In this document: positions 9,293 to 47,614 of the stretch, piece after piece
How the letters are laid out: the number at the start of each line of letters is the position of its first letter
Numbering within the stretch: the first letter of the stretch is position 1
Assembly: GCA_963921275.4 (NCBI GenBank)
Contig: OZ001293.3
Coordinates: forward strand, 896,001 to 960,000
Source of the DNA: an uncultured Hormoscilla sp.
GTDB taxonomy: Bacteria; Cyanobacteriota; Cyanobacteriia; Cyanobacteriales; Desertifilaceae
Reading direction: 5' to 3'
Length of the DNA: 64,000 bases
The notes under the pieces: model-generated
The model's database searches: none
What the model was told of the DNA's origin: nothing
What the model saw: the letters and a program-made list of their open reading frames with translations, nothing else
Translations under genes and position numbers: made by a program

Positions 9293-9365
9293 TACCCCCA
9301 AGGGAATTCGAATCCCTGTCGCCTCCGTGAAAGGGAGGTGTCCTAGGCCTCTAGACGATGGGGGC
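9293..9365 (-). tRNA. trnE: tRNA-Glu (TTC), CCA not encoded
   Basis: Reverse complement GCCCCCATCGTCTAGAGGCCTAGGACACCTCCCTTTCACGGAGGCGACAGGGATTCGAATTCCCTTGGGGGTA; cyanobacterial/plastid type. Confidence 0.97.
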
Positions 9366-9467
9366 TTGATTTATCTTCCTTAAATAATATAGCTAACCCG
9401 ATCTGAGATTGTCAACCCTTTTTGCTAAATTTCCCAAAAAAATTTTTTGAGCAGTAGGAAAAGGGGT

Positions 9468-10643: not shown

Positions 10644-10817
10644 TTAGCTATTTTCTGACTAATTTTAGATTTTATTAATAATTTAGCAAATATTGGCGAT
10701 CGGTGATTACCGATTGCTAGCAATGAAAGAATTGAGAAACCAGGTTTTTTCCCAAAACCTGGTTTTTAGGGCTACTGGTGAATGGGGTAATTTAAAATAG
10801 TTAAAATATCTTTTAAA

Positions 10818-12590
10818 ATGATGGTGCTCAATTGGCTGCAAAAACCGGGACAGAAGGTGGCTTACGCCTGGCTTTGTATTTTTTTGAGTTTCGCCCTAGT
10901 CTGCACGCTGCACAGGTACTACAGCTTTTACGCCAGCTTCGATCAGGGGATTTTCAACCAGGTCTTCTGGAATGGGATGCATGGTAACTTCTTCGAGAGT
11001 TCCCTGTCTTCGAGTCTTTCTACCAATGTTGTCCATGCTGGGGATGTGCCGGACGTATCTTACCACAGGTTGGGACAGCATTTTACTCCGGCCCTGCTGC
11101 TGTGGCTGCCAATTTATGCCCTGTTTCCTTCCGCAGCTACTTTAACGGTATTGCAGGTGACCCTGCTAGGGTTGGCGGGACTGGTTTTGCACGCCTTGGC
11201 CAGACAGCATCTGCTACCCCAGAAGGCTGGCATGATTACTCTGGCCTATTACGCTGCTAATGCGGTGCTGGGTCCGACTTTGGGGAATTTCCATGATAAT
11301 TGTCAGTTGCCCCTGTTTGTGTTCGGACTGCTGCTAGCAATGGAAAAACGCTGGTGGTGGCTGTTCTGGCTGCTGGCGGTTTTGGTGTTGGCCATTCGGG
11401 AAGATTCGGGAATTGTTCTGTTTGGCGTCGGTTTCTACCTGGTTGTCAGTGGCAGATATCCCCGGGTTGGTTTGGCAGTCTGTACCCTCAGTTTTGCCTA
11501 TATGCTGATGCTGACTAATCTGATTATGCCCCTGTTTTCGGCAGATATTTCCCGTCGCTTCATGATGGAACGCTTCGGTCAATATGCTACGGAGGCGGAA
11601 GCTTCGACTCTGGATATTATTTGGGGGATGATCTCTCACCCCCTGCGCTTGGTGCAGGAATTGTTCACCCCCTTTTTTAAGACGATTAAATATCTTTTGG
11701 GGCAATGGTTGCCTTTGGCTTTTGTCCCCGCCTTTTCTCCGGCTTCCTGGTGTATCGCTGGCTTTCCCCTGCTCAAATTGTTTTTAGGTCAAGGAGAGTC
11801 GGTCCTGGCTATTAATATTCGCTATGCTTTAACTCCTGTGCCGGGACTGTTTTATGGGGCGATCCTCTGGTGGGCGGGTAAAAGTGATTTTCGCCTCTGG
11901 TGGTTTAACCTCTACCCCCACCCTCACCCTCACCCCCACCCACACCCTCACCCCCACCCCCACCCCAGCCGCCCCACCCTAAAGGGATGGGGCTACAGTT
12001 ACAAAGCCCGCCTGCGCGGGCTTCAGAATCATGAGGAGTTAAAAAAGCCTAAAGCTGTTTCCCGTTCTGTGCGCAGGTTTTGGACAGTCTGTATTGTCCT
12101 GTCGCTGCTGTTTACTCTCACTTCTAATCCGAATCGCACTTTCTATTTCTTGATTCCCGATTCTTTCCAACCCTGGGTCTATGTTAGTTTAACCCGACAA
12201 TGGCAACATGTGAGTCATATCCGCCCCATGCTGGCAGAAATTCCTGCTGATGCTAGTGTGGCTGCTACTACTTATATTGTCCCTCATCTTTCCAGTCGCC
12301 GGGAAATTGTTCGCTTTCCCGCCCAGTTGCGCCTCCGCAATGATGATGGTCAAATTGTTTATGTGGATTATTGTCTGGCAGATCTGTGGCAGCTACAGGA
12401 ATATCAGCTGGCTTTTAAGCGCGATCGCCTGCAATTGCAGCAGGGAGTGCAGCTTATAGATGATATGCTGGCCAATAATACCTATGGGGTGATCGACTTT
12501 GCTGATGGGGTAATTTTGCTGCAAAAAGCTGCCCAGTCCGATGCCAAGGCATTAGCTGCTTGGCGGGCTTTCCGTCAAGCAGTTAAGTAG
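10818..12590 (+). CDS. DUF2079 family membrane protein (GT-C-like) with in-frame repeat insertion
   Basis: FDQGIFNQVFWN, LGQHFTP, NFHD, REDSG motifs; many TM segments; (HP)n plus REP insert at ~11913-12022. Confidence 0.85.
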   Translation: MMVLNWLQKPGQKVAYAWLCIFLSFALVCTLHRYYSFYASFDQGIFNQVFWNGMHGNFFESSLSSSLSTNVVHAGDVPDVSYHRLGQHFTPALLLWLPIYALFPSAATLTVLQVTLLGLAGLVLHALARQHLLPQKAGMITLAYYAANAVLGPTLGNFHDNCQLPLFVFGLLLAMEKRWWWLFWLLAVLVLAIREDSGIVLFGVGFYLVVSGRYPRVGLAVCTLSFAYMLMLTNLIMPLFSADISRRFMMERFGQYATEAEASTLDIIWGMISHPLRLVQELFTPFFKTIKYLLGQWLPLAFVPAFSPASWCIAGFPLLKLFLGQGESVLAINIRYALTPVPGLFYGAILWWAGKSDFRLWWFNLYPHPHPHPHPHPHPHPHPSRPTLKGWGYSYKARLRGLQNHEELKKPKAVSRSVRRFWTVCIVLSLLFTLTSNPNRTFYFLIPDSFQPWVYVSLTRQWQHVSHIRPMLAEIPADASVAATTYIVPHLSSRREIVRFPAQLRLRNDDGQIVYVDYCLADLWQLQEYQLAFKRDRLQLQQGVQLIDDMLANNTYGVIDFADGVILLQKAAQSDAKALAAWRAFRQAVK

Positions 12591-22248: not shown

Positions 22249-22653
22249 ATGCAAAATCAGACTTTTGGCAGGGTAATCCGACAAGCTCGCAAGGACAAGG
22301 GCCACTCTCAGCGGAGTCTAGCGGCCCTGGTCAAGCTGGATTTCACATATTTGTCTAAACTGGAAAATGACCGCGCTAATTATCCCCCCAAAGAGGAGGC
22401 GATCAAGTCCCTGGCGCGTCACCTGGATTTAGATGCGGAACGGTTAATATGTCTGGCTGGCAGGATCCCACAACTGTACGAGGAAGTCCTGAAAAATAAC
22501 TACGACCAGATGCCGGTACTGCTGCGGCGTCTGCGGGAAAATCCAGAGTTTGCACAAAAGGTGTTTCAAGCTGCGATGGAGGAAGATAACGTTGTCTCCG
22601 ATCAAGCCATATCGCTTCTACCCGAAGGCAGAAATCCAGCGTCGGGCCAATGA
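22249..22653 (+). CDS. XRE-family HTH regulator
   Basis: FGRVIRQARKDKGHSQRSLA...YLSKLEND. Confidence 0.88.
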   Translation: MQNQTFGRVIRQARKDKGHSQRSLAALVKLDFTYLSKLENDRANYPPKEEAIKSLARHLDLDAERLICLAGRIPQLYEEVLKNNYDQMPVLLRRLRENPEFAQKVFQAAMEEDNVVSDQAISLLPEGRNPASGQ

Positions 22654-23263
22654 CCTGCTCATGCGGATGCAACTGACACCCAATTGGCAGCCAAGTTGGC
22701 CGTTTGAAGCCGATCGGGTGGCAGATTTTCTGGATCTGGGAGTGGTTTGGGACTCGATCCCGGCAGATGCAACCGGTCCGATTGCGGCCCGGATTCTGCC
22801 GCGCGATCGCCTGATTGAAATAAACGAAGAGATTCTGGAACTGCCGGCAGGGTTTCAACAATCGACCATTGCCCATGAAATCGGACATTGGATGCTGCAC
22901 ATTAACTACTCTCTTCTAGACGTGGAGACCGAAGAGTTGGAGTATGAGAATGCAGCGGACGGGCCGCAGCAATTTGTCTGTCGTGCCAATAGCGGTCTAG
23001 ACAAAGTAGAGTTGATCGAATGGCAAGCGCAGTATTTTGCCAGTTGTCTGCTAATGCCGAGGTCTATCCTGTCCGAGAAATGCCAGGGAAGGGATTTAAC
23101 CAAATGGTCTAATCTGTACGCCCTGCGTTCGGAGTTGGGGGTAAGTATCTCCAATTTAGTCAATCGCCTGCAAGACTTGGGTTGGATAGAAGTTCCCAAG
23201 GGGAGTCGCAAGATTTATCCGGGTACGGCGACGATCTCCGAACAGATTCCCATGTTTGGTTAG
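22592..23263 (+). CDS. ImmA/IrrE-family metallopeptidase
   Basis: TIAHEIGHW HExxH, EWQAQYFASCLLMP; likely start at TTG 22592. Confidence 0.9.
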   Translation: MSPIKPYRFYPKAEIQRRANDLLMRMQLTPNWQPSWPFEADRVADFLDLGVVWDSIPADATGPIAARILPRDRLIEINEEILELPAGFQQSTIAHEIGHWMLHINYSLLDVETEELEYENAADGPQQFVCRANSGLDKVELIEWQAQYFASCLLMPRSILSEKCQGRDLTKWSNLYALRSELGVSISNLVNRLQDLGWIEVPKGSRKIYPGTATISEQIPMFG

Positions 23264-25936: not shown

Positions 25937-26248
25937 TCATGTTCGTCGAGCTGCCAAATCTCTAGCCCCATGAATGACTCGCACAATTTCTATGCCTGAT
26001 GCAGTAGGACGATAGAAAACTAGATAGTTCGTAAAGTTTTTAATTGCCTGCTGTCGCATATCAAGCAGTTGGGGATTAGTAAATTGACAAATTTTCCCTG
26101 TTCTTGGCATTTGCGCTAGTTGTTTGAAGGTTTCTTCGGCTGCCCGAAGAAACCTATCTGAAGCATCTAAATTTTCCAGATCAATATAGGTAGCTATTTC
26201 GATCAAATCACGGATGACTTGCGGACGCTTGTAGATTTCCCTCATCAT
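25937..26248 (-). CDS. parE: ParE/RelE family toxin
   Basis: DLIEIATYI...YLVFYRP...IEIVRVIHGARDL. Confidence 0.88.
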   Translation of the reverse strand: MMREIYKRPQVIRDLIEIATYIDLENLDASDRFLRAAEETFKQLAQMPRTGKICQFTNPQLLDMRQQAIKNFTNYLVFYRPTASGIEIVRVIHGARDLAARRT

Positions 26249-29816: not shown

Positions 29817-30203
29817 TCAGACTGGGACCGGAACGCGCCACTTGTAGCCTCCAGCCTTGGGTAATTCTTTTTCGTAGTCACAGGCTGCAACTGCTTGAAA
29901 TCCCCAAGACCACAAACTTTCTAAAAGTTTTGAAACCAGTGCGATTTGAGCTGGGCGCTGCTGCCCGGGAAGAGCATCAACATCCATGTAGTAACGAAAA
30001 TAAACAAATTCCTCCGGTTCCTCATGGCGACGCTCTGGCTTGAAGTCTTCATTTTTCTTGATATCGATTTCATAATTGGCAGTGCATACCGTATCGATAT
30101 CGACCGTACCTCCCACTAACTGGGCTACTTTCTCTAAAAGCTCGTCGCCAGAAACGTCGGCGTCAACGTAGATTTAGCAATATAATTCATCAGTACTATT
30201 CAT
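29817..30203 (-). pseudogene. Hypothetical (immunity-like) gene with nonsense codon at position 10
   Basis: MNSTDELYC*IYVDAD... is in frame with ORF 29817-30116. Confidence 0.55.
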
Positions 30204-30561
30204 CAGCTCTACTCCTACGCTACAAAAAACGGCGCTACAAAAAACGGCGCTACAAAAAACGGACATTAGCTTCACGGGACGATAATCCAAGGTCCTCTGT
30301 CAAATTCACCCCCGATTCTAATTACCGCGATAACTTAGGGGATTCCAAGCAACAAACTCCCCAATTCGTAGAGCAGGCTTCCGCAAAGCTACCGACCCCG
30401 AACAGGCGGGACGTCTTACGGCAAGGCAAGGAGGCAAAGCAAGGGAGGGTTATAGAGATTGGAAATCCCTTATATTAGAGCTTAAAGCAACAACCTCCGT
30501 GCTGTCATCTAGCCCGCGCCGGCGGGCTTTGTGCGTGTAGCCGGACCCCTCCACGGCTCTA

Positions 30562-31680
30562 TTATCCCAAACGCGCAAGAAGAGCCATCCCTCTGTCATC
30601 TCCCCCCTTTGGAGGTGCCCAAACTTTTGGGTCTTCCAAAAATTGAGTTAACTCTTCCTCTCCAAATTTGCCATCTCGCATTTGCGCGAAGAACTTGCTA
30701 AGCGCTCCTGCAATTCTTGAACCATCCGTACTGACCAAAGTCTCTCCTGCACCGTCTGTAAGCGCAGCAATACCAGTTAGGTTATGGCTGGGGAGGAAAC
30801 CGTGGTGAATGTCTGCATCTTTAATTTTGTCGCTGACAAAAGTAGTTTCGTTAGCAAACTCACTTTTGCCAAGGGGACCAACTAATTCTAGTTTGTTGTC
30901 CTTTTCAACAACAATAAATCCATCTCCGACTTTGAGCCAAAATAAGCGATTTTTGCCCAATACCGCAATCAGTAATGTACAGTTCAATTCATTAACGGAG
31001 CAGTTTTTCTTGTGAGAGAGTTCTTTTAGCGTTTCGATCGCACGCTTTATCAAACTATCTGCATACTTCTCGCCTTCTTCGTCATTAATTTCTTGTTCTC
31101 GATCGAGCAGTTCGTGGTAAATAGAATCTTCTCCCTGTGATGTTATAAATTCAGACAATTTCTCAACAACAGCTTGAGAACCAAGATGAGATAGTCTAGC
31201 ACTACCAGCCCCATCAGCTACGAAAATTGCTGGGAGTGGTTCTAATACAGCAAGTGTTGCATCTTGGCAGGGAACAGGTGGCTCATATCGAAGATGTGAA
31301 TGACCAACTTGCTTAGCATGAATACCTCGCCATTTTGTACTATTTGGATACCGCTCCAGAGGATTGCTAAATTCTTCTGTTGTTAACGGAATGCTTTTCT
31401 CTTCGCTTTTTGCCTTAATGCTTTTTTCTTCGCTTTTATCCGTTTTAGATTTAACATCCTTTATAAGCTCATCAGGTACTTTCTTTTCCCCTAATTCTTT
31501 TTGCTGATCCTGCAGCTTCCCGAGCCGAATATAAAATTTATCCTTTTGCTTTGTCGAAACAGCCTCACATATCGCTTTTATACAATTTCGATACCGCTCC
31601 AGAAGATTGCTAAATTCTTCTGTTGTGAACGGAATGCTTTTCTCTTCGCTTTTTCTTTTTGCCTTTCCATTTTTACTCAT
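30562..31680 (-). CDS. PP2C-like phosphatase (TerY-P triad) with duplicated N-terminal peptide
   Basis: GHSH...CQDA, VADGAGSA, KVGDG, LTDG, GDDR. Confidence 0.88.
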   Translation of the reverse strand: MSKNGKAKRKSEEKSIPFTTEEFSNLLERYRNCIKAICEAVSTKQKDKFYIRLGKLQDQQKELGEKKVPDELIKDVKSKTDKSEEKSIKAKSEEKSIPLTTEEFSNPLERYPNSTKWRGIHAKQVGHSHLRYEPPVPCQDATLAVLEPLPAIFVADGAGSARLSHLGSQAVVEKLSEFITSQGEDSIYHELLDREQEINDEEGEKYADSLIKRAIETLKELSHKKNCSVNELNCTLLIAVLGKNRLFWLKVGDGFIVVEKDNKLELVGPLGKSEFANETTFVSDKIKDADIHHGFLPSHNLTGIAALTDGAGETLVSTDGSRIAGALSKFFAQMRDGKFGEEELTQFLEDPKVWAPPKGGDDRGMALLARLG

Positions 31681-31845
31681 ACATCCAGTTCCTAATCATT
31701 TATACTACCAACGTCAGGCAGGAAATCCAACAAAATTTCAAAACTTTGACATCACTTTGATATCAAGTTCGGCAAGGAGTTTTCATTTTCATGTTTGAAT
31801 GGTATCCCATCCTTTTGTTCCAGTTCCTGGAGTAGAAACACTCAC

Positions 31846-32538
31846 TTATGCTTGAATGCTATCCCATCCTGTTGTTGGTGGCAACTCTACTCCAGTTCCT
31901 GGAGTAGAAACACTCACTTGTGCCATACTTGCTGAGAGCCACTTGAAGAAGTCTCGGAATCTATACCCTGTTAATGTCTTGGGCGGGCGATCGGCTGGGC
32001 AAGCCTGAGCAAGTTTCTCTATATTACAGGAATTACCGATACCAATCCCAAAAACTAATATTTTATTATTCTCAGCCAATTGCCGAAGCGTAGCTGCTGC
32101 TTCGCGATAGACATGATCATCGGTAGGTTTACCATCAGTCATTAGCACTATCCAAGGTTTATAGTGAGCAACACCATTATCTTTGTATGCTTGCGTTCGT
32201 TTTTCCAATACCTCAATTGCTTTCAGAATTGCCGATCCCATTGCTGTTGCTCCGCTCGCAGTAAATATAGGTGTATTAACCTGCAAGATTGATTGGACTG
32301 GGATTACCTCATTTACAATTGTCCCAAACGTAATAACTCCTAATTCAACGGCAGAAGATGCAAAGTCATCTTGACAAACTTCTTCAATAAACTGATTAAC
32401 GCCCTGGTTGAGTTCGTTGATCGGATCTCCATGCATGCTGGAGCTGACATCCAAAACCAACATACATGCACAACGCGGAGTTGGATTTTATATTAAATCT
32501 AAATCGCCATCTAAATCGCTATAGCTATTTGCCCACAT
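31846..32538 (-). pseudogene. terY: TerY-like vWA protein with nonsense codon at 32488-32490
   Basis: MWANSYSDLDGDLDLI*NPTPRCACMLVLDVSSSM (MIDAS), KPWIVLMTDGKPTD, FFKWLSASM; restart at 32463 possible. Confidence 0.85.
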
Positions 32539-32639
32539 CTTCCTATCTCTCCCTCAAAGTAAACGAAAGTACTGTGAATTGCAACAATTTTGTTTGGTAG
32601 TTTTGAATCGTAACTCTAGTTTCGTGCTGAACCCATTGG

Positions 32640-33629
32640 TCATTCTTCATCTTCTTGACTTGGTTTTGGCTGTGCTGGTCTTATTTCTGAAGTGTTATAC
32701 TCCATATTCATTGCCCAGTAATATTTTTCAAGAGTATCTTTCCATTCTGAAATTGATGCTCGGCTTGATGGATCGCGAACACCATACCTCAATGTTTGAA
32801 TAAACAAGGTTTTAACATTATACGTCAGGTGACTCCAAATAATATACCAAGGACCTGGTGGTAAACTCCCTGCCTTTCCTGGTGGAGCGCCTCCTTTACC
32901 ATAAGGGAAATTACCCTTCCTAAGATTTTCAACCGGATTCCCACCGCCAATCTGGCTATAAGGATGCTGTCCCAGCATTAAGCACTGAAACATAAGTATC
33001 GCTAGTGAAAACAGATCGCTTTCGACTGTTCTAGTAATAGTTTTAAAATCCTTGCCATGATGTTCTACAGGTGTCATCTCAGGTTTCCCCACAGGACAGT
33101 GGTAGACTCTGGTTGCACTCTTAATCTGGTAGCTATCAGTATCAATCAGGCATACCTTAAACGAAGTGGAATCTCCCAGTACATTGTCTAGGTTTATGTC
33201 ACCGATACATATCCCTTTTTGGTGTAGCTTTTCAACCGTGTCTAACAGATGCAATAGCATCTTAACAATTCCCCTCCTATCTATGCCTGAAAAATATTTT
33301 CGGTAGAGCATTGGATGAGCTAATTTGCTTAGCTGAACGCCTTTAGCTCGTTTCATAGCGTAGCCAATCCATTCACCTTTAGCATTAAAAACCTGTATTT
33401 GTGGCCAAGTCAGATAGCGATTCTCAATAATATCCCGCATCTGGGTTTGAACATGAACTTTTTCTCTCAGTTTATCTCCTCTCTTCTTCAATTTGTCGGC
33501 ATTAAAAATTTTGACCAAAATATTAGGGTTCTCACTGAGGCAATATACATTTCCTTGCCCACCGCTGCCAACAAGTTCGCCAAGCTGACGTGGTTGCTTA
33601 TTTTTCTCATAGACAGTCAAATTGTTCAT
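32640..33629 (-). CDS. Ser/Thr kinase-like protein (TerY-P triad)
   Basis: GSGGQGNVY, LVKIF, IGDINLDN, LIDTDSYQ, GQHPY. Confidence 0.88.
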   Translation of the reverse strand: MNNLTVYEKNKQPRQLGELVGSGGQGNVYCLSENPNILVKIFNADKLKKRGDKLREKVHVQTQMRDIIENRYLTWPQIQVFNAKGEWIGYAMKRAKGVQLSKLAHPMLYRKYFSGIDRRGIVKMLLHLLDTVEKLHQKGICIGDINLDNVLGDSTSFKVCLIDTDSYQIKSATRVYHCPVGKPEMTPVEHHGKDFKTITRTVESDLFSLAILMFQCLMLGQHPYSQIGGGNPVENLRKGNFPYGKGGAPPGKAGSLPPGPWYIIWSHLTYNVKTLFIQTLRYGVRDPSSRASISEWKDTLEKYYWAMNMEYNTSEIRPAQPKPSQEDEE

Positions 33630-33659
33630 ATAGCACTTTTAACTGAACGGGGACAGACA

Positions 33660-34270
33660 ACCGGTGGGGACAGTAGCTGTGAGGCCCTATCCGCTGCTGG
33701 TGAGTCATACTTATTTCTACCAGATAGCGGGCGATCGCCTCGGGTGCCGCTTTCAACCGATTTTTCCGGAACGGTGTCCCGACAAATGCTATCCACCATT
33801 CTGTCATATCGGGAGCCTTACCTGTCAATGTTTACAAAAATTAACACAGATGCCAATAGTTTGGGGCACAGTAGCTGTCCGCCTCAAGAAGCTGCCGGTG
33901 CCTCTGACTTATTTCTACCAGATAGCGGGCGTGGTTGCTTATTTTCGTCATAGACAGTCATATTGTTCATATAGCACTTTTAACTGAACGGGGACAGACA
34001 ACCGGTGGGGACAGTAGCTGTGAGGCCCTATCCGCTGCTGGTGAGTCATACTTATTTCTACCAGATGGCGGGCGATCGCCTCCGTCGGGGCTTTCTACCG
34101 ATTTTTCCGGAACGGTGTCCCCCAAAATGCTATCTACTATTGTGTCACATCTTTGCTTTACATGTCAAGCCAAACAAAGTTTAACACAGATGCCAATAGC
34201 AAAGGGGACAGTAGCTGTGATGCTCTATCCGCTGCCGGTGAGTCATACTTATTTCTACCAGATAGCGCGC
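33660..34270. repeat. ~197-bp non-coding repeat array, left block (4 hairpin modules)
   Basis: ACAGTAGCTGT at 33670, 33868, 34011, 34208; TTATTTCTACCAGAT in each copy. Confidence 0.92.
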
Positions 34271-34386
34271 CATTCCTAATATTTTCTGAGAGCTTCTTGT
34301 ACTCCTTCTCGATCGGCATCAGGTAACCGAGGCTTTTCCAGACAGGCGATTAACTTTGCGCAATGCGGTTGTGGTAATTTCGGCAT
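34271..34386 (-). pseudogene. 5' fragment of a restriction endonuclease gene (Bpu10I-like)
   Basis: MPKLPQPHCAKLIACLEKPRLPDADREGVQEALRKY*EW directly downstream of the MTase, cut at the repeat; family from recollection. Confidence 0.55.
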
Positions 34387-34388
34387 AG

Positions 34389-35582
34389 TTAATTTATTGT
34401 CTGATATAGGTAGCAGTTTCTATCTAGTTTCGGAGTACTGCTAATAGCTGGTACTCGTTCAATTGCCGACTCCAGATACTCGCGATTTTTAAGTGGAACC
34501 AAACTTCTTCCCATTTTGAGAACTTCAGTAGCTACTTTTCTGGCAAGTTTTTCTGTCGCCTCGCCAACTATATCACAATTTGAAAAATTTAGCAAATCTT
34601 CTCGGATCCTTTTCCCAAACTTATTTTTGAATTCTCTTTTCTGCCGCAATACTTTTTTATACATACCCGATTCTATTGCCAACCTTTCTATAATATCAGC
34701 ATTATAAAAAGGCACTCCCATAACTTGAGATTCCCGACCAACTACAAATATAACTCTTGCTTCACTTCTGCATACTCTTGCTAGTTCCCTTAAAGTTTCT
34801 GCCATATCTAGGCAATATTGTACAACTGTATAGAAACGATTGCCTCTATTTGCTCGATTATTACCTATCTCTGACTTAGCAATTTTTAACAAATCCCATC
34901 CCAAGCACTCCGCAGATTTGCGATAATTTTGGTGATAGTTGAAGACATTAATATAGGGTGGAGATGTGAGAATAAAATCAATTTGGTTATCTGGCAAGGG
35001 GAGAACTCTAGCATCCCCTAGATGTGCTGCAATCTTTTTTTCTGAATAGGGTAAATTTTCAATTAGCTTCGCTAATTGAAAAAACTGACTCTGGATAAAT
35101 TCATTAGTAATCTGGTTGTTGCCAACATCCAGAATAATTATCAGAGCATTTAGTAATATTTCTGCATCCGGCTCCAGGCGATCGCGGATTTGCTTAACCT
35201 TCTGTTCCCAGTCTAGCACAAGGGTTTCCCAGGAGCTTAAAATTCTGAAAGGGAATTCTAATTCTAGATTTTCTCTCAGTTGCTTGAGGAGGTAGTCGCG
35301 GGATCCCTGATTAATAAACTCATAAGTCTTGCTCAACATCCAAGCAGCGGGATTAAGTTCAAAACCATAGGCTTCTAGGGATAGATTCCCCGCTTCTAAT
35401 AAAACGGTTCCGCTTCCCAAAAAAGGATCGAGAATCACCGAATTAGGCAAACAATAGGCAGATATTATCGCCTCAACCAACTGTGGCGATAACTGACCCC
35501 GCCATGCAAATAAATTAGCTCTTTTTTTGTCAGCGATATTCAAGAGTTGCTGGCAAATAGGTTTAGCGAAATCTTTCAACAC
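34389..35582 (-). CDS. DNA methyltransferase (amino-MTase, probably m4C)
   Basis: ILDPFLGSGT (motif I) and LTSPPY (motif IV). Confidence 0.9.
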   Translation of the reverse strand: MLKDFAKPICQQLLNIADKKRANLFAWRGQLSPQLVEAIISAYCLPNSVILDPFLGSGTVLLEAGNLSLEAYGFELNPAAWMLSKTYEFINQGSRDYLLKQLRENLELEFPFRILSSWETLVLDWEQKVKQIRDRLEPDAEILLNALIIILDVGNNQITNEFIQSQFFQLAKLIENLPYSEKKIAAHLGDARVLPLPDNQIDFILTSPPYINVFNYHQNYRKSAECLGWDLLKIAKSEIGNNRANRGNRFYTVVQYCLDMAETLRELARVCRSEARVIFVVGRESQVMGVPFYNADIIERLAIESGMYKKVLRQKREFKNKFGKRIREDLLNFSNCDIVGEATEKLARKVATEVLKMGRSLVPLKNREYLESAIERVPAISSTPKLDRNCYLYQTIN

Positions 35583-35664
35583 TTGTTTATCTCCACCGCG
35601 TAGGGTTCCTCCAAGGTTTGATAACTGTTAGCCAGAATCATATCTAAGTGCACGGCGCGCGCTG

Positions 35665-36012
35665 GGGTAAAGATAAAGTTGCTCTCTTTCCTTTATCTGC
35701 TGCCGGTGCCTCTGACTTATTTCTACCAAATGGCGGGCGATCGCCTCCCTGGGGCTTTCAACCGATTTTTCCGGAACGGTGTCCCGACAAATGCTATCCA
35801 CCATTTTTTCACATCGGGAGCGCAACCTGTTAAGCAAAACAAAAATTAACACAGATGCCAATAGCAAAGGGGACGGTAGCTGTGATGCCCTATCTGCTGC
35901 CGGTGATTCATCCTTATTTCTACCAGATAGGGAGCGATCGCCTCCCTGGGGCTTTCAACCGATTTTTCCGGAACGGTGTCCCTAAAAATGCTATCTACTA
36001 TTCTGTCACATC
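35665..36012. repeat. ~197-bp non-coding repeat array, right block (2 units)
   Basis: Same hairpin, HIP1 and TTTCAACCGATTTTTCCGGAACGGTGTCCC core as the left block. Confidence 0.92.
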
Positions 36013-36462
36013 TTTGCGGGTGTGGTCAAAACCTGTTGATTCTCATGATCTCTCCCAGTCGCCGGAGCCCCCCAAACCCCCCGCTAAGTTAGGGGGCTAA
36101 AGGATTTGGGGGGGCTCCTTGTGCAACGGTCTGCATGACCACACCCATCAGAGAAACCCTGCATCAGGAACACCAAGCAATCGGGAGTGAACTCAAAGGT
36201 TGCGTTACCACTGGCGATCGCTCCCCGATCGGGGAGGTATTCGCGATCGGACTGTGAGTCGCCGGTCGCCAGATGGCCCTCACGGAGAGTCTGAAATACC
36301 GATAAGATCACCTAAGCAGAAAGCAGGGAGCACCCGAGCACGGGTGCTCGGGTGCTGTCAGACTCATAACCGGTTTTGTGCGACCTGCTACAGGTGCTGA
36401 GCGACCAAAATTGATAAAGAAACCCGGTTTCACCGCCCCCACGCGAGGATCCTCCGACGAGC

Positions 36463-36670
36463 GCATATATGCTTTGTTCCTCAGCATATATGCTTTACCC
36501 CTCAGCATATATGATTTGTCTATAAGCAAATCAGCTTTGCCCCTCAGCATATATGATTTGTCTATAAAAAAATCATATATGCTCTTCAGAATATATGATT
36601 TGGCCATTTTAAATAATATTTGCGGCCGAGCAAATATTATCTACCGCCGAGCAAATACTATTCTGGGCCT
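36463..36670. repeat. Degenerate 21-bp tandem repeats (~10 units)
   Basis: GCATATATGCTTTNCCCCTCA-like units. Confidence 0.8.
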
Positions 36671-37010
36671 ATATTTTTAACCGAAAAGTATTGGAAGCCT
36701 TTAAATATCATTCCGAGGGATCTACCCAAAATGCTTAGAGGAACGGAAAAGTCGTACCCGAGCAGTTGTAAATACTTTCTGCGGTAATTTTAGGATATGT
36801 CAGTCAAATTATATCAACAGGATATACGCCTTTTGACCGGGTGACCTCGGAATGCCCAGCATTATGACTGGTCGATTATGATAGAACCAGACAGTGGAGA
36901 CTATTTTATCCGGAGCCAAAAGTGGCTTTCCCAAGGAAAACGTAAACCAGCAATCTGATTATCATCAGATTATAAATTGAAGGTATTATGACTGAGGCTA
37001 ATGCTTAAAG

Positions 37011-37514
37011 ATGAATATTAATACGCAAAAAAAATAATTCAGTTATGCTTATATTTATGCAGTCGCTTCGACAGCGAGTTACTCCTGCCAACTTGCGAAT
37101 AGACCCTCAGACTTAGAAGGAATCGATCTGACGATTTCTGGTCCGGAACTCCAAGACACTCTCTATCCTCCCAGACTTGAATTGCCAGTTAAGTCAACAT
37201 CCTCAGATATGGGAAATGATGACCCGATCCGCTATTCTCTGAAAGTAAAAAACTACAACGAACTCAGAAAAACCAGAATCTTAATCCCTAAACTATTAGT
37301 AGTCCTTTTCATCCCCGAAAACCCAGGGGATTGGTTAAAGCAAAGCGAAAGGGAACTTTGTCTCCGCAAATGCGGATATTGGTTATCCTTGAGAGGACAA
37401 ACCGCAACTGACAATACCGAAAAGATGACTGTCTATCTCCCTCGCCAGCAACAGTTTACTGTTAATGCTTTACAAACTATCATGCAGCAAATCCAAACTA
37501 GAGGAACATTATGA
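37011..37514 (+). pseudogene. DUF4365 (restriction-endonuclease-fold) gene with nonsense at codon 9
   Basis: MNINTQKK*FSYAYIYAVAS...GIDL...VKSTS...LRKCGYWLSLRG. Confidence 0.8.
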
Positions 37515-38059
37515 AAGCAACTGTTTACGATTTTACTCTTTTGGGTCACCTCGAACCTCAGCAAATCGAAACTTATCTTACAGGCGCAGGTTGGCAAGAA
37601 CACCACCGCATTCCCGACCGTTTTTCTGCGTGGACTAATGATAACTATCAAATGTTAAAAATTTACCTTCCTTTAGACCGAGAGTTCGAGGACTACCCTC
37701 AACGGATAGCCGAAGTGGTAGAAACTATGGAGAAAACAGAAGGGCGATCGCAACTGGAAATTATCAGGAAACTGATTACGGATATCCCTAATATTAACAT
37801 TCAGGGATTGATCGTGCAAGTCCAACCTCCAGAGGGCGATCGCCTGAGTGGAGAGATAACAATGTTTGGAGTAGTGATTGACCAACTCCGCCAGATTAAA
37901 ACTTCATTGTTTGACCGAGATTATATTATGGCTATGGCTATTAAAGCATATACCGAACGCCTCCCCATCCGCTGTACGGGGGATTTAGTTAAATAAAATA
38001 ACGGTTTTATCCTGAAGAATAGCCATGATTTGAGCTTAGATTGTTCCTGGCAAAACTGA
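37511..38059 (+). pseudogene. DUF4365 partner gene with late nonsense codon
   Basis: ATGA overlap; frame continues past TAA 37996 (NNGFILKNS...) to TGA 38059. Confidence 0.6.
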
Positions 38060-38145
38060 TAGGCGGTAGAACCGGAAGGGGCGATCGCCCCTTTTCGGAG
38101 GAAAGGCAAGAGGTTTCTGCGCCCAAACCTAATCGCCTTTTTTCC

Positions 38146-38633
38146 TTAACTAGGAGTGCCTATTGATTGAATTGCAAGGGGTGAGTTGATACCCAGTAAA
38201 ATCCGGGATTTCAAAGTTGCTAAATCCTCTGTTGCTGCTTGGGCCTCGTAAAGAGATTCGGTTGCAGCAGCAAAGGCATCTGCATCTAGGGCATAATAAA
38301 GAGAATTAACGGCGTGTGCCTTTTGAAAAGCAGCTATGTAAGTTTCCAACTGCGCTTTCCCTCTTCTGCCATCTTTTCTTGTAAGTCCCACTGCTTTTCA
38401 TCAAGCTGGTTAATAAAGGATTCTAACCTCGATCGCAACATTTCGTTACCCGGTACGCCTCCTTTGATTGCCTCTAATCCTTTATCAATAATTGTAGCGC
38501 TGATGCCAGTTTTTGCAAGGGCAAATTTGCAGGCGATCGCGCTGCGCGCACGCTGTTGGGCAATTGAAGCACTCAGCAAATATGCGGAGAGTTCTGGGTC
38601 AATCAATTCTAAGCGATTTCCTGTCATTTTCAT
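38146..38633 (-). pseudogene. Hypothetical gene split by frameshift
   Basis: Overlapping ORFs 38334-38633 and 38146-38391 read as one protein. Confidence 0.5.
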
Positions 38634-38647
38634 CTTAACTCCTTTGT

Positions 38648-38887
38648 TATCTCGTTCCCTGACTCTGGCATTCCCTGCCCAACAGAGGCTCTGCCTCCTG
38701 TCAGGACGCGAGGCAGAGCCTCTGAAAATCGTTGCTAGCTAGAAACTAGCAACGAGGGTGATATCTATTTTATCATTATTTTATCTCGTTCCCTGACTCT
38801 GGCTCTTAACGCCCGACCGCGAGGCAGAGCCTCTGAAAATCGTTGCTAGCTAGAAACTAGCAACGAGGGTGATATCTATTTTATCAT
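38648..38887. repeat. Two tandem REP-like composite repeats
   Basis: TCTCGTTCCCTGACTCTGGC...GAGGCAGAGCCTCTGAAAATCGTTGCTAGCTAGAAACTAGCAACGAGGGTGATATCTATTTTATCAT x2. Confidence 0.85.
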
Positions 38888-39061
38888 CCGAGCGACTGCA
38901 AAAGCAACCGCGATCGCCCCTTCGTAGTCCGGGCGTCCCGCCGTCTCGCCTGTCCCTGGGCGAAAAAGCCGATCGCCCTTTCTTTCTCCCCATCAGCAAA
39001 AAAAATATGCTAAAGCCTTGACAAACAGAGCGGTATTGCAGTCTATTAGAAAAGAGAGATT

Positions 39062-39395
39062 AATGGTGGTTTCTAGAGCGGTGAAAACTAAGAGAAAAGT
39101 GCCTCTTGGCAGTCCGATGTTTCCCGATCTCCCGCCCATCGATCCAGCAGAAAGAGTCAGACGGAAAGCGAAACGTCGGGCCTTTGCCCAGCGTTGTCGG
39201 GCAATTTTTGACCGGGTGGCCCCGGAATTAATTGCCCGGCATTATGACTGGTCGATTATGATAGAACCAGACAGTGGAGAGTATTTTATTGACCCGGACC
39301 CAGAAGTAGCTTTCCAAAAGGCCAAGCACAAACATCCGATGGCAGTGATTATGGAAATGCGTTTGAATGAAACGGGGACTTGTGGCAAAATATGA
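39062..39395 (+). CDS. Conserved cyanobacterial hypothetical protein; next gene truncated at a HIP1-like site
   Basis: HYDWSIMIEPDSGEYFID...RLNETGTCGKI; followed by an MMEGYFGDR fragment. Confidence 0.6.
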
Positions 39396-39475
39396 TGGAA
39401 GGATATTTTGGCGATCGGGACTGTTCGCCTCAAGTGACAGCAAAGAAGACATGAGGGTAAATTGAGGTTTGTGGT

Positions 39476-39907
39476 ATGAAGATATATCTGGACACGAATG
39501 TATATAACCGACCATTTGACGATCAAACGCAAACGAGGATCGAGTCAGAAACATTAATTTTCAGAGTGGTAATGAGGTTGGTGGAAATGGGAGATACAGA
39601 ATTAGTCAGTTCGTATATACTAGAATATGAGAATAGTAGGAATAGGTTTGTAGATCGGCGGAAATGGGTGGAGAGCAAATTGCAGCTAGCGACATTTTAT
39701 CAAGAAATGAACGCCGAAATAGCCGAACGCGGGAGAGCGCTTCAAGAACAGGGCTTGGGGGCGATCGATGCGCTGCATGTAGCTAGTGCTGAAGCCGCAG
39801 GTACGGACTATTTCTTGACTTGTGACGATCGCCTGATCCGCCGTTATCAGGGAAGTCTCAACTTGGTTACGCCGGCAAATTTTATATTAGCAATTACCAG
39901 AGGATAA
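39476..39907 (+). CDS. PIN domain protein
   Basis: IYLDTNVYNRPFDD...DALHVASAE...FLTCDD. Confidence 0.88.
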   Translation: MKIYLDTNVYNRPFDDQTQTRIESETLIFRVVMRLVEMGDTELVSSYILEYENSRNRFVDRRKWVESKLQLATFYQEMNAEIAERGRALQEQGLGAIDALHVASAEAAGTDYFLTCDDRLIRRYQGSLNLVTPANFILAITRG

Positions 39908-40132
39908 GTGATGAACAAGAGGACCCCAGAACAAGAAGAAGTCATACAAGAAGCGTTAGAGATTTTAAAGAAATACATGGCACCATCGAAACTAGCGCTT
40001 TTGATATCTATGTTACCATGGGATGGTGGGGATTCTGTAGCAATGCGCGAAGAGTTGTTTGCTGGAGAAACTGTGGATAGTTTGGTTGAGAAAATTCAAG
40101 ATTATCAAAACAGTAAGATCTCTCGCGTTTGA
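39908..40132 (+). CDS. Small partner (putative antitoxin)
   Basis: 74 aa, abuts the PIN gene. Confidence 0.6.
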   Translation: MMNKRTPEQEEVIQEALEILKKYMAPSKLALLISMLPWDGGDSVAMREELFAGETVDSLVEKIQDYQNSKISRV

Positions 40133-40754: not shown

Positions 40755-42377
40755 TCATCTAGTTCCAGAGCGATCGCCTATTTCCCGGGCGATCTCTAAA
40801 TGCTGTCGATGGCAATCCATTGCTCGGCTATACTGCCCTAGGCAACCGTAGGCTATTTTCAAAGAACCCAGCGCCATCCCCTCGACAGCGCGATCGCCTA
40901 TTTCCCGGGCGATCTCTAAACTCTGCTGAAGATAATCTATTGCTTGTCTAAACTGTCTTAGGGAACAGTAGGCATTCCCCAAAGAACTCAGCACTTTTCC
41001 CTCGCTAGCGCGATCGCCTACTTTTCTGGAGATCGCTAAACTCTGCTGTAGGTAATCTATCCCTTGGCTATACTGCCCTAGCTTATTGTAGACATTTCCC
41101 AAATTACCCAGCGCTATACCCTCGCTAGCGCGATTGCCTATTTCCCTGGCAATCTCTAAATACTTTTGATGGCAATCTATTGCGCGGGAGAACTCCCCTA
41201 GGGAATCGTAGGCATTGCCCAAATTTCCCAGCACCTTACCCTCGCTAGCGCGATCGCCTATTTCCCTGGCAATTGCTAAACTCTGCTCAAAGTAATTGAT
41301 TGCTTGAGTATACTGCCCTAGACCATTGTTGGTAAGCCCCAAATTTCCCAGCGCACTACCCTCGCCAATACGATCGCCTATTTCCCTGGCAACCGCTAAA
41401 CTCTGCTGAAGGTAATCTCTTGCTTTCTGATACTGTTCTAGATAATTGTATGCATTTTTCAAATTTACCAGCGCGTAAACCTCCTGAAGGCGATCTCGAT
41501 CGCCTATTTTCCGGGCGATCTCTAAATGCTTCTGAAAGTAATCTATTGCTTTCTGATACTGCCCTTGGTCACAATATGAAGTTCCCAAATTTCCCAGCCC
41601 AAAACCCGCGATATATATGTTATATATATCTCCTCTTTCCCTGACAATTATTTGCTCATAGTAATCTCTTGCTTTCTGATACTCCCCTAGGCGATTGTAT
41701 GCATTTCCTAACCCATTCAAACAAATAATGTCCAAATAATCATTTAACTTTCCCTCCAATTTCCTATACGGTTTGAATTTCCCCAACAGTCTGCTATACA
41801 GTTCAATTGTTTCCCTGTAGTAACCCCAAATATGCAGTTGATTGTCTAATTGTTCCTGCGTATCCATGCGGATACAAAGTATCTTGGTAGCTTCTCCCCA
41901 TTCCGACAACTCGCAGAGATGGTGAAACGCTTCCAAGTATCCCTGCACCTTCTCTATATTAGAATCATCTCGCGGTTCGTAGTAATTGAAGTTATAAAAT
42001 GCCTTGCGGATGTGAGACTGTTCTGTCAGGGTCAACTCTCTTACTTCTCCCGTCCATATTTGATTATCATAGTTGCTAATCAAGTCCATTAGCATATTTA
42101 TTATCTTCTCATCCCGAATTGCTCCCACTCCCTTTGCCAACAGTTCCTCCACTCCCATCGCCATGACATCGTTTCTATCGTTTTCCTGTTTGCTATCAGC
42201 ATCTGAGACAGGCAAAACCAACTTCCTCTCTGGCACAGTATATCGCAACTGGAAGACATCATCTTCCGAAAGCTCTTGCAGTCGCACCTGTTTGTATAAT
42301 CTCTCTATAATAATCCTCGCTTCTCGATCTTTTAATTATCGGTTCTTCCGTTCTGTTATCAACTCTGTTGCTGGCAT
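40755..42377 (-). CDS. TPR-repeat protein (nonsense at codon 14, GTG restart 42287, C-terminus truncated)
   Basis: YLEAFHHLCEL segment and about 8 repeats of ALGNLG..Y..LGQY..AIDY.QQSL.IAREIGDR. Confidence 0.85.
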
Positions 42378-42400
42378 AACTCACCGCGTAGCACTGCCGT

Positions 42401-43837
42401 TCAATTCCGATCGAATGCCCGCAAATGTTCCAGCGCCACTCCCCTGATCATACTGTGCAGGCGATAGTAAACCTTGCTCTTAACCTTTTCGGACTCCAGC
42501 AAAAACCGACGCTGCAAGGTTTCAAATGCCAATTTTTGTTCCTCCCGGGGAAACTCGCCAATCAAAAACAACCAAGCTCTCCGATTTTCCGCCCGTCTAT
42601 TCGTCCCCCCCATACAAAACAATTGATATGCCAGAGGGTAATCCTCGCGCAAGCGGGAAACGCTGCTTTCAATGCGCTTGCGCACCAAATCCTTGAGGTC
42701 GATAGTAAAGGTCAAATCTTCCCTATCCTGACTCGGATCCCCTTCCGTAGCAGTTTTCAGCCGTTCCACCTCCTCAATTTCATATCCATATTCATCCCAA
42801 AAAGCCTGAATGTCCCCCTCGTAGGGAGAACGAATTTCCCCAGCAATCACCCGCAGGGCCAGGGGGTGCCCTTCGTAGACAGCAATCATCCGGTCCAGAT
42901 ACTCGCCATCCACATCTGAATTTATCTTCACATTCCAAGCAGCAAACAGCATTCTTGCTTCTGTTCTATCTAAACCTTTCATCGGTTCCGTATGGTGTCG
43001 TTCCAAAAAGCGCCCCTCAGCGCCAACCGGGGGTCGGTATTGAGAAGTCAGGATCAGGCGCGATCGCATTTCCGGTGCCGAGACCACCGCATCCAGGAAC
43101 TTGCCAAAAACAGGCTGCTCAAACCGGTGTCCCCCCTGAGTATCCGCCTGTAAAACCGCTTCCAACATATCCAGGACTAACAAGCAAGGTTGTGACTGCA
43201 ACTTATGGACGATCTTCCGAACCATAGCATCTTCATTTTGCAGCAACTCAGGTTGAGAAGCCAAATTTTCACCCAAAACCCGCTGCGCCACCACCTGAAA
43301 GTCAAGAGACCCTTGATAAAAGCTGAGAGTTTTCACTCTTGGCAAAAACTCTTGCATCTGTGGTTCCCGCGTCAGTTGGGCCGCCAAAGAAGTCTTGCCA
43401 ATACCCGTTATCCCCACCAGGGACAAAACCCGACAATCTCCCTGCAATTTAGCAATCAGTTCCCCAATCAGAGTCTCACGTCCCACCCAGCGAGTCAAGC
43501 CATCATCAAGTCCTGCTGTCAGTTGTTCTTGTTCTTTCTGCCCAGACTTCGACTGAGAATCTGTCCTCTGCGCCCCATAGCGTTCCAATGCCGCGCGGAA
43601 ACTCTTCTTACTCACCTTTTCCCCTAACGCCTCCGACAGACGTTCCCACAGCTTTTGACCATAATCTCGCTTGAAAGTCGATTCAGCATAGCCGTGCTTT
43701 TTGGCTATCTGTTCATAGGTCTGCCCCTCAACCGACCCCTCAATTATAAACTTTTCCGGGTCTCGTAAGTGTTGTCCCTCAAGAGCGAAAATCGCCTCAT
43801 CAGCAATCTGAAAATATTCTTTCGGCTTCAATTCCAA
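42401..43837 (-). CDS. STAND/NB-ARC-like ATPase with N-terminal HTH, no fused sensor
   Basis: GITGIGKT Walker A, LLVLDMLE Walker B, ILTS, GHPLAL, RLHSMIR. Confidence 0.85.
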   Translation of the reverse strand: MELKPKEYFQIADEAIFALEGQHLRDPEKFIIEGSVEGQTYEQIAKKHGYAESTFKRDYGQKLWERLSEALGEKVSKKSFRAALERYGAQRTDSQSKSGQKEQEQLTAGLDDGLTRWVGRETLIGELIAKLQGDCRVLSLVGITGIGKTSLAAQLTREPQMQEFLPRVKTLSFYQGSLDFQVVAQRVLGENLASQPELLQNEDAMVRKIVHKLQSQPCLLVLDMLEAVLQADTQGGHRFEQPVFGKFLDAVVSAPEMRSRLILTSQYRPPVGAEGRFLERHHTEPMKGLDRTEARMLFAAWNVKINSDVDGEYLDRMIAVYEGHPLALRVIAGEIRSPYEGDIQAFWDEYGYEIEEVERLKTATEGDPSQDREDLTFTIDLKDLVRKRIESSVSRLREDYPLAYQLFCMGGTNRRAENRRAWLFLIGEFPREEQKLAFETLQRRFLLESEKVKSKVYYRLHSMIRGVALEHLRAFDRN

Positions 43838-43998: not shown

Positions 43999-44343
43999 AT
44001 GGCATTTCAAACCAACAGCCCCAAGCGCGGCGAAATCTATCTAGTACAACTGGGTCCCACAATTGGTTGTGAGATCCGCAAAGACCGTCCGGCGCTGATC
44101 CTGCGGAATTCAAATAGTCCCCTCACCTGCATCGCGCCCCTAACCTCAAAAGTACATAAAAACTCTCCCACCACAGTATTCATCAAAGCTAATGAAGGAG
44201 GATTGAATTTAGATTCATTAGTCTTACTAGAACAAATGAAATCCATAGATAAGCAAAGGTTGCTCAAACGCTTCGGTAATGTCACCCCACAGACCATGAA
44301 AAGAGTCGATATTGCCTTCAAGAGAACCTTTGGTTGGAAATAA
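43999..44343 (+). CDS. mazF: MazF/PemK family toxin, no adjacent antitoxin
   Basis: KRGEIYLV.LGPTIGCEIRKDRPALIL...QMKSIDKQRL. Confidence 0.88.
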   Translation: MAFQTNSPKRGEIYLVQLGPTIGCEIRKDRPALILRNSNSPLTCIAPLTSKVHKNSPTTVFIKANEGGLNLDSLVLLEQMKSIDKQRLLKRFGNVTPQTMKRVDIAFKRTFGWK

Positions 44344-47236: not shown

Positions 47237-47614
47237 CTATGATAGCATTCTCTCAATTTCCTGTAACACATCGACCAACATGGGAGCATCTGAGGAAATA
47301 ATATTATCTTGACTCCCATCATGCTTGTGATGAGGATAATTTGGCAGATGCAGCTTTTTGTGATGTGTGGTATTGTCATAGCGAAAAATCAGATTATTTG
47401 AAGCGTACTGATATGAATACAGATCGCCGTCTATCTTAGTTTTTACAGCTACATACTCGCGCAGGTAAAGCACGGAAGCATCTGTAAATTTTACCTCCCC
47501 ACGAATAAAACCTTCATAAGTGCCCTGTTTCTCAGGGATAAGGGTGAACGAATGCACGACGGGATAAGCTTGAATAGCCTCGTCAATAAGCTGAAAGTAC
47601 TCCTCAATTAACAA
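47237..47614 (-). CDS. DUF6516 family toxin
   Basis: YSYQY...IFRYDNTTHH...PHHKH. Confidence 0.8.
   Translation of the reverse strand: MLIEEYFQLIDEAIQAYPVVHSFTLIPEKQGTYEGFIRGEVKFTDASVLYLREYVAVKTKIDGDLYSYQYASNNLIFRYDNTTHHKKLHLPNYPHHKHDGSQDNIISSDAPMLVDVLQEIERMLS

Follow-up and report, generated by a model that had tools for sequence, protein, structure and literature searches.

A genus-restricted composite repeat array with promoter-like hexamers beside defence operons of an uncultured Hormoscilla sp.

Described repeat systems and the Hormoscilla array

The NsiR1 locus upstream of hetF in Anabaena/Nostoc is a tandem small-RNA array with a promoter and an intrinsic terminator in each repeat, and type III toxin-antitoxin (TA) systems of the ToxI-like kind consist of short, near-identical tandem RNA repeats followed by the gene of an endoribonuclease toxin. 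Small dispersed repeats (SDR) are imperfect palindromes of ~20–27 nt with a high dispersed copy number and insertion polymorphism; those of the Nostocaceae were reportedly treated by Elhai et al. 2008 (Genome Res). The array considered here belongs to an uncultured Hormoscilla sp., a cyanobacterial sponge symbiont (assembly GCA_963921275.4, contig OZ001293.3, positions 896,001–960,000 of the forward strand; these 64,000 nt are called the window, and coordinates refer to it unless stated otherwise). The piece under study, window positions 32,640–36,012, contains direct repeats of ~197 bp interleaved with defence-type genes, and all neighbouring genes are encoded on the minus strand, referred to below as the gene strand. 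A full unit is made of a hairpin module (A), one copy of the octamer HIP1 and a second module (B). Judged from sequence alone and with about even confidence, the array is best taken as an intergenic spacer of composite make-up, amplified locally and predicted to bear promoters, and not as a dedicated family of RNA genes.

Like the NsiR1 array, the Hormoscilla units are cyanobacterial tandem repeats with a promoter-like element in each, but they have no terminator per unit, no match in Rfam and no structural covariation, and the TCCGGA present in the unit belongs to a genome-wide 18-mer and is not a specific promoter motif. An NsiR1-type small-RNA array was ruled out by the lack of a terminator-like site in any unit, and a DIF/heterocyst-type TCCGGA promoter motif by the membership of TCCGGA in the 18-mer. 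The likeness to type III TA systems lies in direct repeats placed immediately upstream of a defence-type operon on the same strand. In contrast to those systems, the unit has 197 bp instead of tens of nucleotides, its copies are 81–92% identical instead of near-identical, a kinase and not an endoribonuclease is encoded downstream, a gene fragment is included in the array and units also precede a methylase gene; a type III antitoxin was ruled out by the length, the identity and the downstream kinase and methylase. With miniature inverted-repeat transposable elements (MITEs) the unit shares the character of a short non-coding repeat present at more than one locus, and a true MITE is nested at the array end. 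However, the unit occupies two loci in a genome of 7.03 Mb and has no terminal inverted repeats, unlike MITEs with their many dispersed copies, which ruled out this class as well. No target-site duplication was noticed at the unit, although no systematic search for one was made.

CRISPR and attC arrays had been set aside in an earlier note on this sequence, and both exclusions were borne out: the units, 197–198 bp long, abut head to tail with a 9-nt loop (three variants in the window) as the sole variable piece, and Pfam scans of 9 and 26 open reading frames (ORFs) over ~10–52 kb of the window revealed no integrase domain, attC structure itself not being modelled. A coding role was also ruled out, since the unit-spanning ORFs of both strands, including one of 201 aa in the related genome G004, matched no Pfam family below E = 0.01 and the unit length varies between 197 and 198 bp.

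Composite make-up and distribution of the unit

The window's own genome (G000, 7.03 Mb) was compared with four genomes of the same genus (G001–G004). The six copies of module A reported in the earlier note were recovered in place or nearly so: five have clear starts (ACAGTAGCTGT or ACGGTAGCTGT) at 33670, 33868, 34011, 34208 and 35873, and the sixth, with a degenerate 5' part, starts at ~35677–35694. The start-to-start spacings of 198, 197 and 198 bp agreed with the proposed period of 197–198 bp. HIP1 (GCGATCGC) and module B follow the A copies at 33670, 34011, ~35690 and 35873, that is, four copies as had been said, and are missing after those at 33868 and 34208; the loop variants GAGTCATAC, GCCTCTGAC and GATTCATCC were all seen again. 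Repeat families in the window comprised three copies of 183 nt (100/60/81% identity), two of 228 nt (92%) and three of 122 nt (61/100/88%). Owing to its interruptions, the array was missed by Tandem Repeats Finder. When one unit was searched with blastn against the whole genome, the local copies gave E-values of 1e-37 to 1e-101, and chance is therefore excluded as the source of the repeats. HIP1, described in a passage of PMC5861425 as a generic, highly iterated cyanobacterial palindrome and a genome-wide octamer, is present once per full unit, right after the A hairpin; being generic, it is no defining feature of the unit.

The core of module B is an imperfect palindrome (ACCG-ATTT-TTCCGGAA-CGGT) found on both strands in coding and non-coding DNA. 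Within G000, the 20-mer CCGATTTTTCCGGAACGGTG occurred in 60 exact copies and in 238 copies at up to two mismatches. The module B 18-mer CGATTTTTCCGGAACGGT had 155 exact copies in G000 and 18, 111, 122 and 94 in its four congeners, with no copy in 36 genomes of 29 other genera and none for the reversed control pattern. Open frames of 150 codons or more held over half of the exact G000 copies (85 of 155), which were mostly read as DFSGT (38) or TVPEK (23), and the remaining 70 fell in no such frame. Filled and empty sites could be distinguished: a unit in G002 is without exactly 22 nt at the B core (junction GGGGCTTTC/TCCCGAC), the G003 form is 5 nt shorter, and a second clean empty site in G000 (C1:~2368400) is without 15 nt that are found in G001 and G002. 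The palindrome is thus an insert in the unit, so that the second hairpin of the earlier note and the 5' half of its GGGACA...TGTCCC closure derive from an inserted element. Since this hairpin and HIP1 are both generic genome-wide palindromes, two of the supposed structural parts are not specific to the unit.

Palindromic structure, high dispersed copy number and insertion polymorphism, the hallmarks of SDR, were found in the B core only, at a length of 15–22 nt. It resembles the SDR of Nostocaceae as a very short imperfect palindrome with hundreds of copies and filled and empty sites, and differs from them in sequence, in lineage (Hormoscilla) and in a length somewhat below that of SDR; the whole 197-bp unit is no SDR. 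A passage of PMC5861425 reports that no SDR-like repeats were found outside the Nostocaceae. The MITE at the array end is another dispersed repeat, with its terminal 14-mer present in 94 exact copies in G000 and 145 at up to one mismatch; the same junction between a truncated B module and the MITE was found in G003 as in the window, and MITE copies also interrupt the units of G002.

Part of the repetition came from a 341-bp segmental duplication (33583–33810 and 33924–34151, the 92% identical 228-nt repeat), which takes in the first 47 nt of the kinase ORF. It brought the kinase start codon and ~13 kinase codons into the array, where they form a 28-codon pseudo-ORF fused into the A2' module (translation MNNMTVYDENKQPR... 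versus MNNLTVYEKNKQPR... of the kinase), and the layout with the duplicated kinase fragment is common to the window and G004. A duplication carrying the 5' end of a gene along points to unequal recombination and not to a modular RNA gene. As far as the sequence tells, the repeats are a composite and not a designed array. Between G000 and G004, 18 of 644 positions differ in the array, compared to 5 of 990 in the kinase gene (none at its 330 third positions) and 0 of 618 in the vWA gene: the array has diverged more rapidly than these neighbours. Its differences are concentrated at 34083–34100, suggestive of gene conversion among units rather than of constraint.

The favoured account of the array, at about even confidence as said above, would start from a low-copy, genus-only element of ~130 bp, the core of the unit, with the gene-strand order HIP1, an imperfect hairpin, the block CTATTGGCATCTGTGTTAA, TTGACA and GATGTGA. 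In this lineage, the core would have become linked to a short leader and a -10-like TGnCAnAAT, the 22-nt small dispersed palindrome would then have been inserted into it, and the resulting unit would have been multiplied by unequal homologous recombination and segmental duplication. Each full unit would carry a sigma-70-type promoter on the gene strand. The methylase gene and the kinase-vWA-PP2C operon would then each be preceded by two such promoters in tandem (four in G004), with transcripts predicted to read through the hairpins into the genes without production of discrete small RNAs. The composite make-up, the 341-bp duplication with the kinase start codon, the faster divergence, and the rearrangement and deletion with breakpoints in units are the steps that can be followed in the aligned sequences themselves.

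The unit as a whole proved to be rare and genus-specific. Twelve blastn matches were obtained for it in G000: six in the array, two at a second locus (locus 2, C1:2871108–2871249) and four short matches to the B core. The conserved 19-mer and 17-mer of the unit were confined to the array and locus 2, besides two chance-level 17-mer matches at up to two mismatches. Among 61 related genomes, at least a partial copy was present in all four same-genus genomes and in 0 of the 56 others; a pattern scan with one genome per species found three loci only, from two Hormoscilla metagenome-assembled genome records. A covariance model of the unit core matched 1 of 151 genomes of the order, namely G000 with seven matches, although this model (R1) missed the truncated G003 copy under stricter filters. 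No match to the unit was obtained in two metagenome pattern scans or by blastn against plasmids and phages. The unit thus occupies two loci per genome, confined to the single genus Hormoscilla; it is a low-copy repeat that is new and restricted to the genus, but ordinary in kind. Copies scattered over the genome with no link to defence, which the earlier note had named as an outcome contrary to its reading, were found for the B core (155 exact copies), and locus 2 lies by M32 and TPR genes, whereas the whole unit is low-copy.

The unit at locus 2 has a peptidase M32 gene on one side and TPR genes on the other, in G000 as in G004. Together with u0, an isolated partial unit of G004 (positions 7290–7432 of L021, the G004 locus used for comparison with the window), and one G002 copy, it forms a set of isolated copies which have only module A and the upstream half of B in common and in which 21-nt tandem repeats take the place of the -10-like segment. 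These 21-nt repeats, of the GGTACGGAAGAGTCGTGCTCG type, flank isolated unit copies at locus 2 of G000, in G002 and in G004. Two adjoining 21-bp tandem arrays, GCATATATGCTTTGTCCCTCA x4.8 and AAATAATATCTACCGCCGAGC x2.4, are also present in the window at 36463–36661, within a 1.04-kb stretch missing from G004.

Promoter-like hexamers and hairpins

The sigma70-like TTGACA...CASAAT that the earlier note had placed on the gene strand was found there. With -35 and -10 hexamers required at a spacing of 16–18 nt, two of the four B copies passed a consensus scan of the gene strand of the window, with TTGACA-18-CACAAT at 34168–34139 (10/12, TG upstream) and TTGACC-18-CAGAAT at 36029–36000, and the same TTGACA-18-CACAAT was found in G004. 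In an alignment of 14 B copies, the TT.AC of the -35 element and GATGTGA were invariant or nearly so, the spacer existing in two unrelated versions. Where the upstream half was replaced by the MITE or by the 3' end of the restriction endonuclease (REase) gene, TTGACC or TTTACT still stood 18 nt from a -10-like hexamer. In G000 and G004 alike, two different operons have units upstream of them in sense orientation. With the hexamers kept while the spacer differs, and with units before two operons in two genomes, the "portable promoter-leader unit" half of the earlier proposal is plausible, and promoter function, if unproven, is the most likely role of the unit to judge by these hexamers.

Several observations weigh against this reading. 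The other two B copies of the window need a 19-nt spacer plus a weak -10 element (TTGACA/TTAACA with CAGAAT/AAAAAT), and promoter-like sites were not clearly enriched compared to shuffled sequences (9 versus 4.4 +/- 2.2 in the window and 8 versus 5.4 +/- 2.5 in G004). The isolated copies (locus 2 in G000 and G004, u0 and one G002 copy) keep TTGACA and have GAACGA in place of the -10 element, and no gene in sense orientation follows the presumed promoter at locus 2 or in G002. Taken together with the faster divergence of the array, the co-duplicated gene fragment and a region full of other small repeats (MITE, 21-nt tandem arrays, HIP1), the insignificant excess over shuffles and the isolated copies without a -10 element or a gene to face are in line with a neutral relic. 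According to this explanation, the units would have the same origin but no function, their hexamers would resemble promoters by chance and the real promoters would be elsewhere. It is considered unlikely, though to be taken seriously, since the -35-like TT.AC and the GATGTGAnAnAAT block are kept in all array-type units of three genomes despite differing spacers, both persist where foreign DNA has replaced the upstream half, and units lie directly upstream of both operons, in sense orientation, in two genomes.

The repeated structured non-coding RNA proposed in the earlier note was not supported. In such a scheme, each unit would give a ~130-nt minus-strand leader or small RNA, closed by GGGACA/UGUCCC, that regulates or partners the downstream defence genes. 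The closure around the hairpins can indeed form as claimed, with 91.2% of 171 alignment cells pairing (21 pairs), and tandem repeats directly upstream of a defence operon might recall RNA antitoxin arrays. However, for the noted fold, consisting of the closing helix, the dispersed-repeat hairpin and the A hairpin, none of the 21 pairs was changed on both sides and 500 of 500 shuffles were as good. RNAalifold with ten leader-length copies yielded a gene-strand fold of -9.8 kcal/mol, none of whose 17 pairs was compensated, and an opposite-strand fold of -9.0 kcal/mol, again with no compensation among 13 pairs, a test in which the power to see covariation is low with 10 sequences from a single genus. 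The Rfam cmscan of positions 30000–40000 at E<=1 gave two sub-threshold hits (30510–30533 and 32049–32142), neither of them in the repeats. Compared to 200 shuffles, the folds of 130-nt pieces were no more stable on the gene strand (z = -0.98, -0.01 and +0.27; other strand -1.71, -0.86 and -2.09), and the minimum-free-energy folds differed between copies. An intrinsic terminator was not present inside the units, either in the window or in G004, and one of the hairpins is the mobile 22-nt insert missing from the G002 unit.

Differences among the copies break the pair at alignment columns 45:58 in the second hairpin (lost in 4 of 8 units), the pair 91:123 (lost in 5 of 9) and pairs of the outer A helix. 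Over 16 copies of the A hairpin, all 80 gene-strand cells of its inner 5 bp paired, by way of U-A/U-G, compared to 66 of 80 on the other strand; for the outer 5 bp the counts were 54 of 80 and 64 of 80 cells, respectively. The strand evidence of the A hairpin is therefore mixed and its outer helix is not maintained. The inner helix, which U-A/U-G alternation preserves on the gene strand of all 16 copies, speaks to some extent against a purely promoter-bearing spacer and leaves some room for a role at the RNA level; a dedicated structured RNA appears, on balance of these folds and the absent compensatory changes on either strand, very improbable.

Defence operons and rearrangements around the array

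The positions of the features are collected in Table 1. Along the gene strand, the MITE comes first, followed by truncated B4-HIP1-A6, B3-HIP1-degenerate A5, 88 bp and the methylase gene (35582–34389). The REase stub (34386–34276), A4, B2-HIP1-A3 and the duplicated leader with the kinase fragment come next, and A2', B1-HIP1-A1, the leader and the kinase gene (33629–32640) complete the order. The kinase-vWA-PP2C triad and the DNA methylase named in the earlier note were confirmed as minus-strand genes, and the methylase is of the N6/N4 type.

Table 1. Features of the repeat array and adjoining genes (window coordinates)
Feature	Positions	Strand	Basis or remark
Ser/Thr kinase gene, first of the kinase-vWA-PP2C (TerY-P-like) operon	32640..33629	-	Pfam Pkinase E=2.3e-8
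Proximal leader between unit 1 and kinase start codon	33630..33665	-	100% identical in G004
Full unit 1 (198 bp): A1, HIP1 33731-33738, SDR-like 22-nt insert 33755-33776, B1	33666..33863	-	
B1 candidate hexamers, 19-nt spacer	TTGACA 33828-33823, CAGAAT 33803-33798	-	
Module A2', variant 5' part, loop GCCTCTGAC, without HIP1/B, abutting the duplicated kinase fragment	33864..33931	-	
28-codon pseudo-ORF from the duplication	33884..33970	-	Translation compared with kinase
Duplicated kinase 5' end and leader (second duplication copy, 92%)	33924..34006	-	Present in G004 also
Full unit 3 (197 bp): A3, HIP1, SDR-like insert 34096-34117, B2	34007..34203	-	
B2 candidate promoter, TTGACA-18-CACAAT, TG upstream	34168-34139	-	
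Module A4; 3' end is the breakpoint of the REase deletion	34204..34271	-	Alignment to L021
36-codon stub of Bpu10I-family restriction endonuclease gene	34276..34386	-	Matches N-terminus of 303-aa G004 REase
Type II N6/N4 DNA methyltransferase gene	34389..35582	-	Pfam N6_N4_Mtase E=1.4e-13; PADLOC MTase_II
Unit 5, upstream of methylase: degenerate A5, HIP1, SDR-like insert 35760-35781, B3	35677..35868	-	
B3 candidate hexamers, 19-nt spacer	TTAACA 35833-35828, AAAAAT 35808-35803	-	
Unit 6: A6, HIP1, SDR-like insert 35957-35978, B4 cut at -35 side by MITE	35869..36017	-	
B4 candidate hexamers, TTGACC supplied by MITE end	CAGAAT 36005-36000, TTGACC 36029-36024	-	
129-bp MITE, terminal inverted repeats GGGTGTGGTCA...TGACCACACCC, capping the array	36018..36146	.	

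The locus has a counterpart in G004, the only one of the five same-genus genomes besides that of the window with an ortholog of the kinase (98% identical). Its order is PDC-M02A (DUF4365), u0, the methylase, an intact 303-aa REase of the Bpu10I family (RE_Bpu10I, E = 3e-103), truncated B, A-B-A-B-A, the duplicated kinase fragment, A'-B-A, the leader and kinase-vWA-PP2C; 3.5 units plus the duplicated block thus stand between REase and kinase. Window positions 35605–34266 aligned with L021 7575–8916 at 95.8% identity (methylase plus the first 120 bp of the REase) and positions 34273–30561 with L021 10014–13741 at 97.7% (from inside an A module through PP2C). According to these two flanking alignments, the window lost the REase from ~codon 40 together with ~1.3 units, and the deletion ends in module A4. 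A type II restriction-modification (R-M) operon is thus intact at L021:7481–9707, and the corresponding window positions 34276–35582 hold the methylase and a REase stub, the partner being lost. A search for sequencing runs of this organism turned up no RNA run. Among contigs from four sequencing samples, which come without strand or end information, X1, X2 and X4 were exactly like the window, and X5, from another sample, had the G004-like join. The units upstream of the window methylase were only 86% identical to any G004 unit and are read as paralogous, not orthologous, to the G004 units on the strength of this identity. The position of the array on both sides of the methylase, stated in the earlier note, was confirmed, and its origin became clear from this comparison: units stand before each of the two operons, and loss of the intervening gene left the methylase with repeats on either side. 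In the PP2C gene, 40 of 1119 positions (20/6/14 by codon position) differ between window 30562–31680 and L021:12622–13740; the mosaic divergence of G000 and G004 suggests a recombination tract or relaxed selection in PP2C.

In the remaining genomes the units have other neighbours. In G002, two MITEs interrupt the units, which are placed between PARIS (AriA/AriB) and HEC-01A/B (L022, a locus on G002:C2, positions 6477–11818), with neighbouring genes in the opposite sense; the syntenic site in G000 (C1:4646051–4648598) has HEC-01 and neither PARIS nor the unit. In G001, where the kinase ortholog is absent, a remnant of module A is located 330 bp after hisG-ABC. These arrangements would fit with a homology module, in which the main consequence of the unit would be repeated homology at the borders of defence operons, allowing them to be moved, duplicated and deleted by homologous recombination. 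In the genomes searched, units or pieces of them are indeed found at the junctions of R-M and triad in G000 and G004 and of PARIS and HEC-01 in G002, beside PDC-M02 fragments in G000, G003 and G004 and after hisG-ABC in the triad-less G001, the REase deletion ends in a unit and two arrangements exist among the samples. The explanation is nevertheless improbable: the five genomes belong to one genus and are not independent, locus 2 of G000 and G004 lies between peptidase M32 and TPR genes and not at defence genes, no recombinase is located nearby, and any repeat can be a substrate of recombination without that being its function. Equally doubtful is the broader idea, drawn from the same junctions, that the unit may be a genus-specific portable promoter-and-homology module at the borders of R-M, the TerY-P-like triad, PARIS, HEC-01 and PDC-M02, both driving and shuffling these operons.

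The surroundings of the array, a defence island according to the earlier note, are a variable island rich in defence and toxin-antitoxin genes, with a TerY-P-like triad, a type II methylase, PDC-M02 fragments and genes for a STAND NTPase, PIN, MazF, ParE and TumE. On one side are PIN (39476–39907), TPR and NB-ARC/STAND NTPase (40755–43837, minus strand), MazF/PemK (43999–44343) and TumE (47237–47614), and on the other ParE (25937–26248) and a pair of HTH and M78 peptidase genes (22249–23263). The nearest transposase genes are 13–18 kb away in the window, and no recombinase is found near the array. The truncated PDC-M02 genes at 37182–37996 encode a 110-aa piece of A (DUF4365) and a 161-aa piece of the ~380-aa B. 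Just downstream of PP2C, a GC-rich hairpin at 30510–30533 gave a sub-threshold match to CRISPR-DR28 (29.7 bits versus 35) and is probably a terminator-like hairpin, and a perfect 15-bp x3 tandem repeat is present at 30218–30262.

TerY-P triads (vWA, PP2C and Ser/Thr kinase) are linked to restriction systems in PMC10542128, where TerY-P-like modules are also described as phage defence in their own right. All three domains are encoded in the downstream operon; PADLOC gave no hit for PP2C or vWA and only weak ones for the kinase (MkoA and PD-T4-6, E of 1e-8 to 8e-7). In 400 sampled cyanobacterial genomes, no triad kinase above 35% identity was found, with 13 of 401 genomes, that of the window included, having a match at E<=1e-35.

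The locus cautions that an array resembling promoters plus hairpins by defence genes can arise by ordinary processes, here a low-copy intergenic element, the insertion of generic small repeats and segmental duplication, and need not be an RNA device. Its most unusual item is a by-product, the hyper-abundant, genus-restricted palindrome of 18–22 nt with filled and empty sites, which could serve for studying the spread of mini-repeats. The comparison of relatives also documents turnover in a defence island, where an R-M system decayed to a lone methylase via a deletion ending in a repeat and the defence systems next to the element vary between sister genomes. If the portable promoter-and-homology module were true, it would represent recombinase-free shuffling of defence cassettes in an uncultured sponge symbiont.

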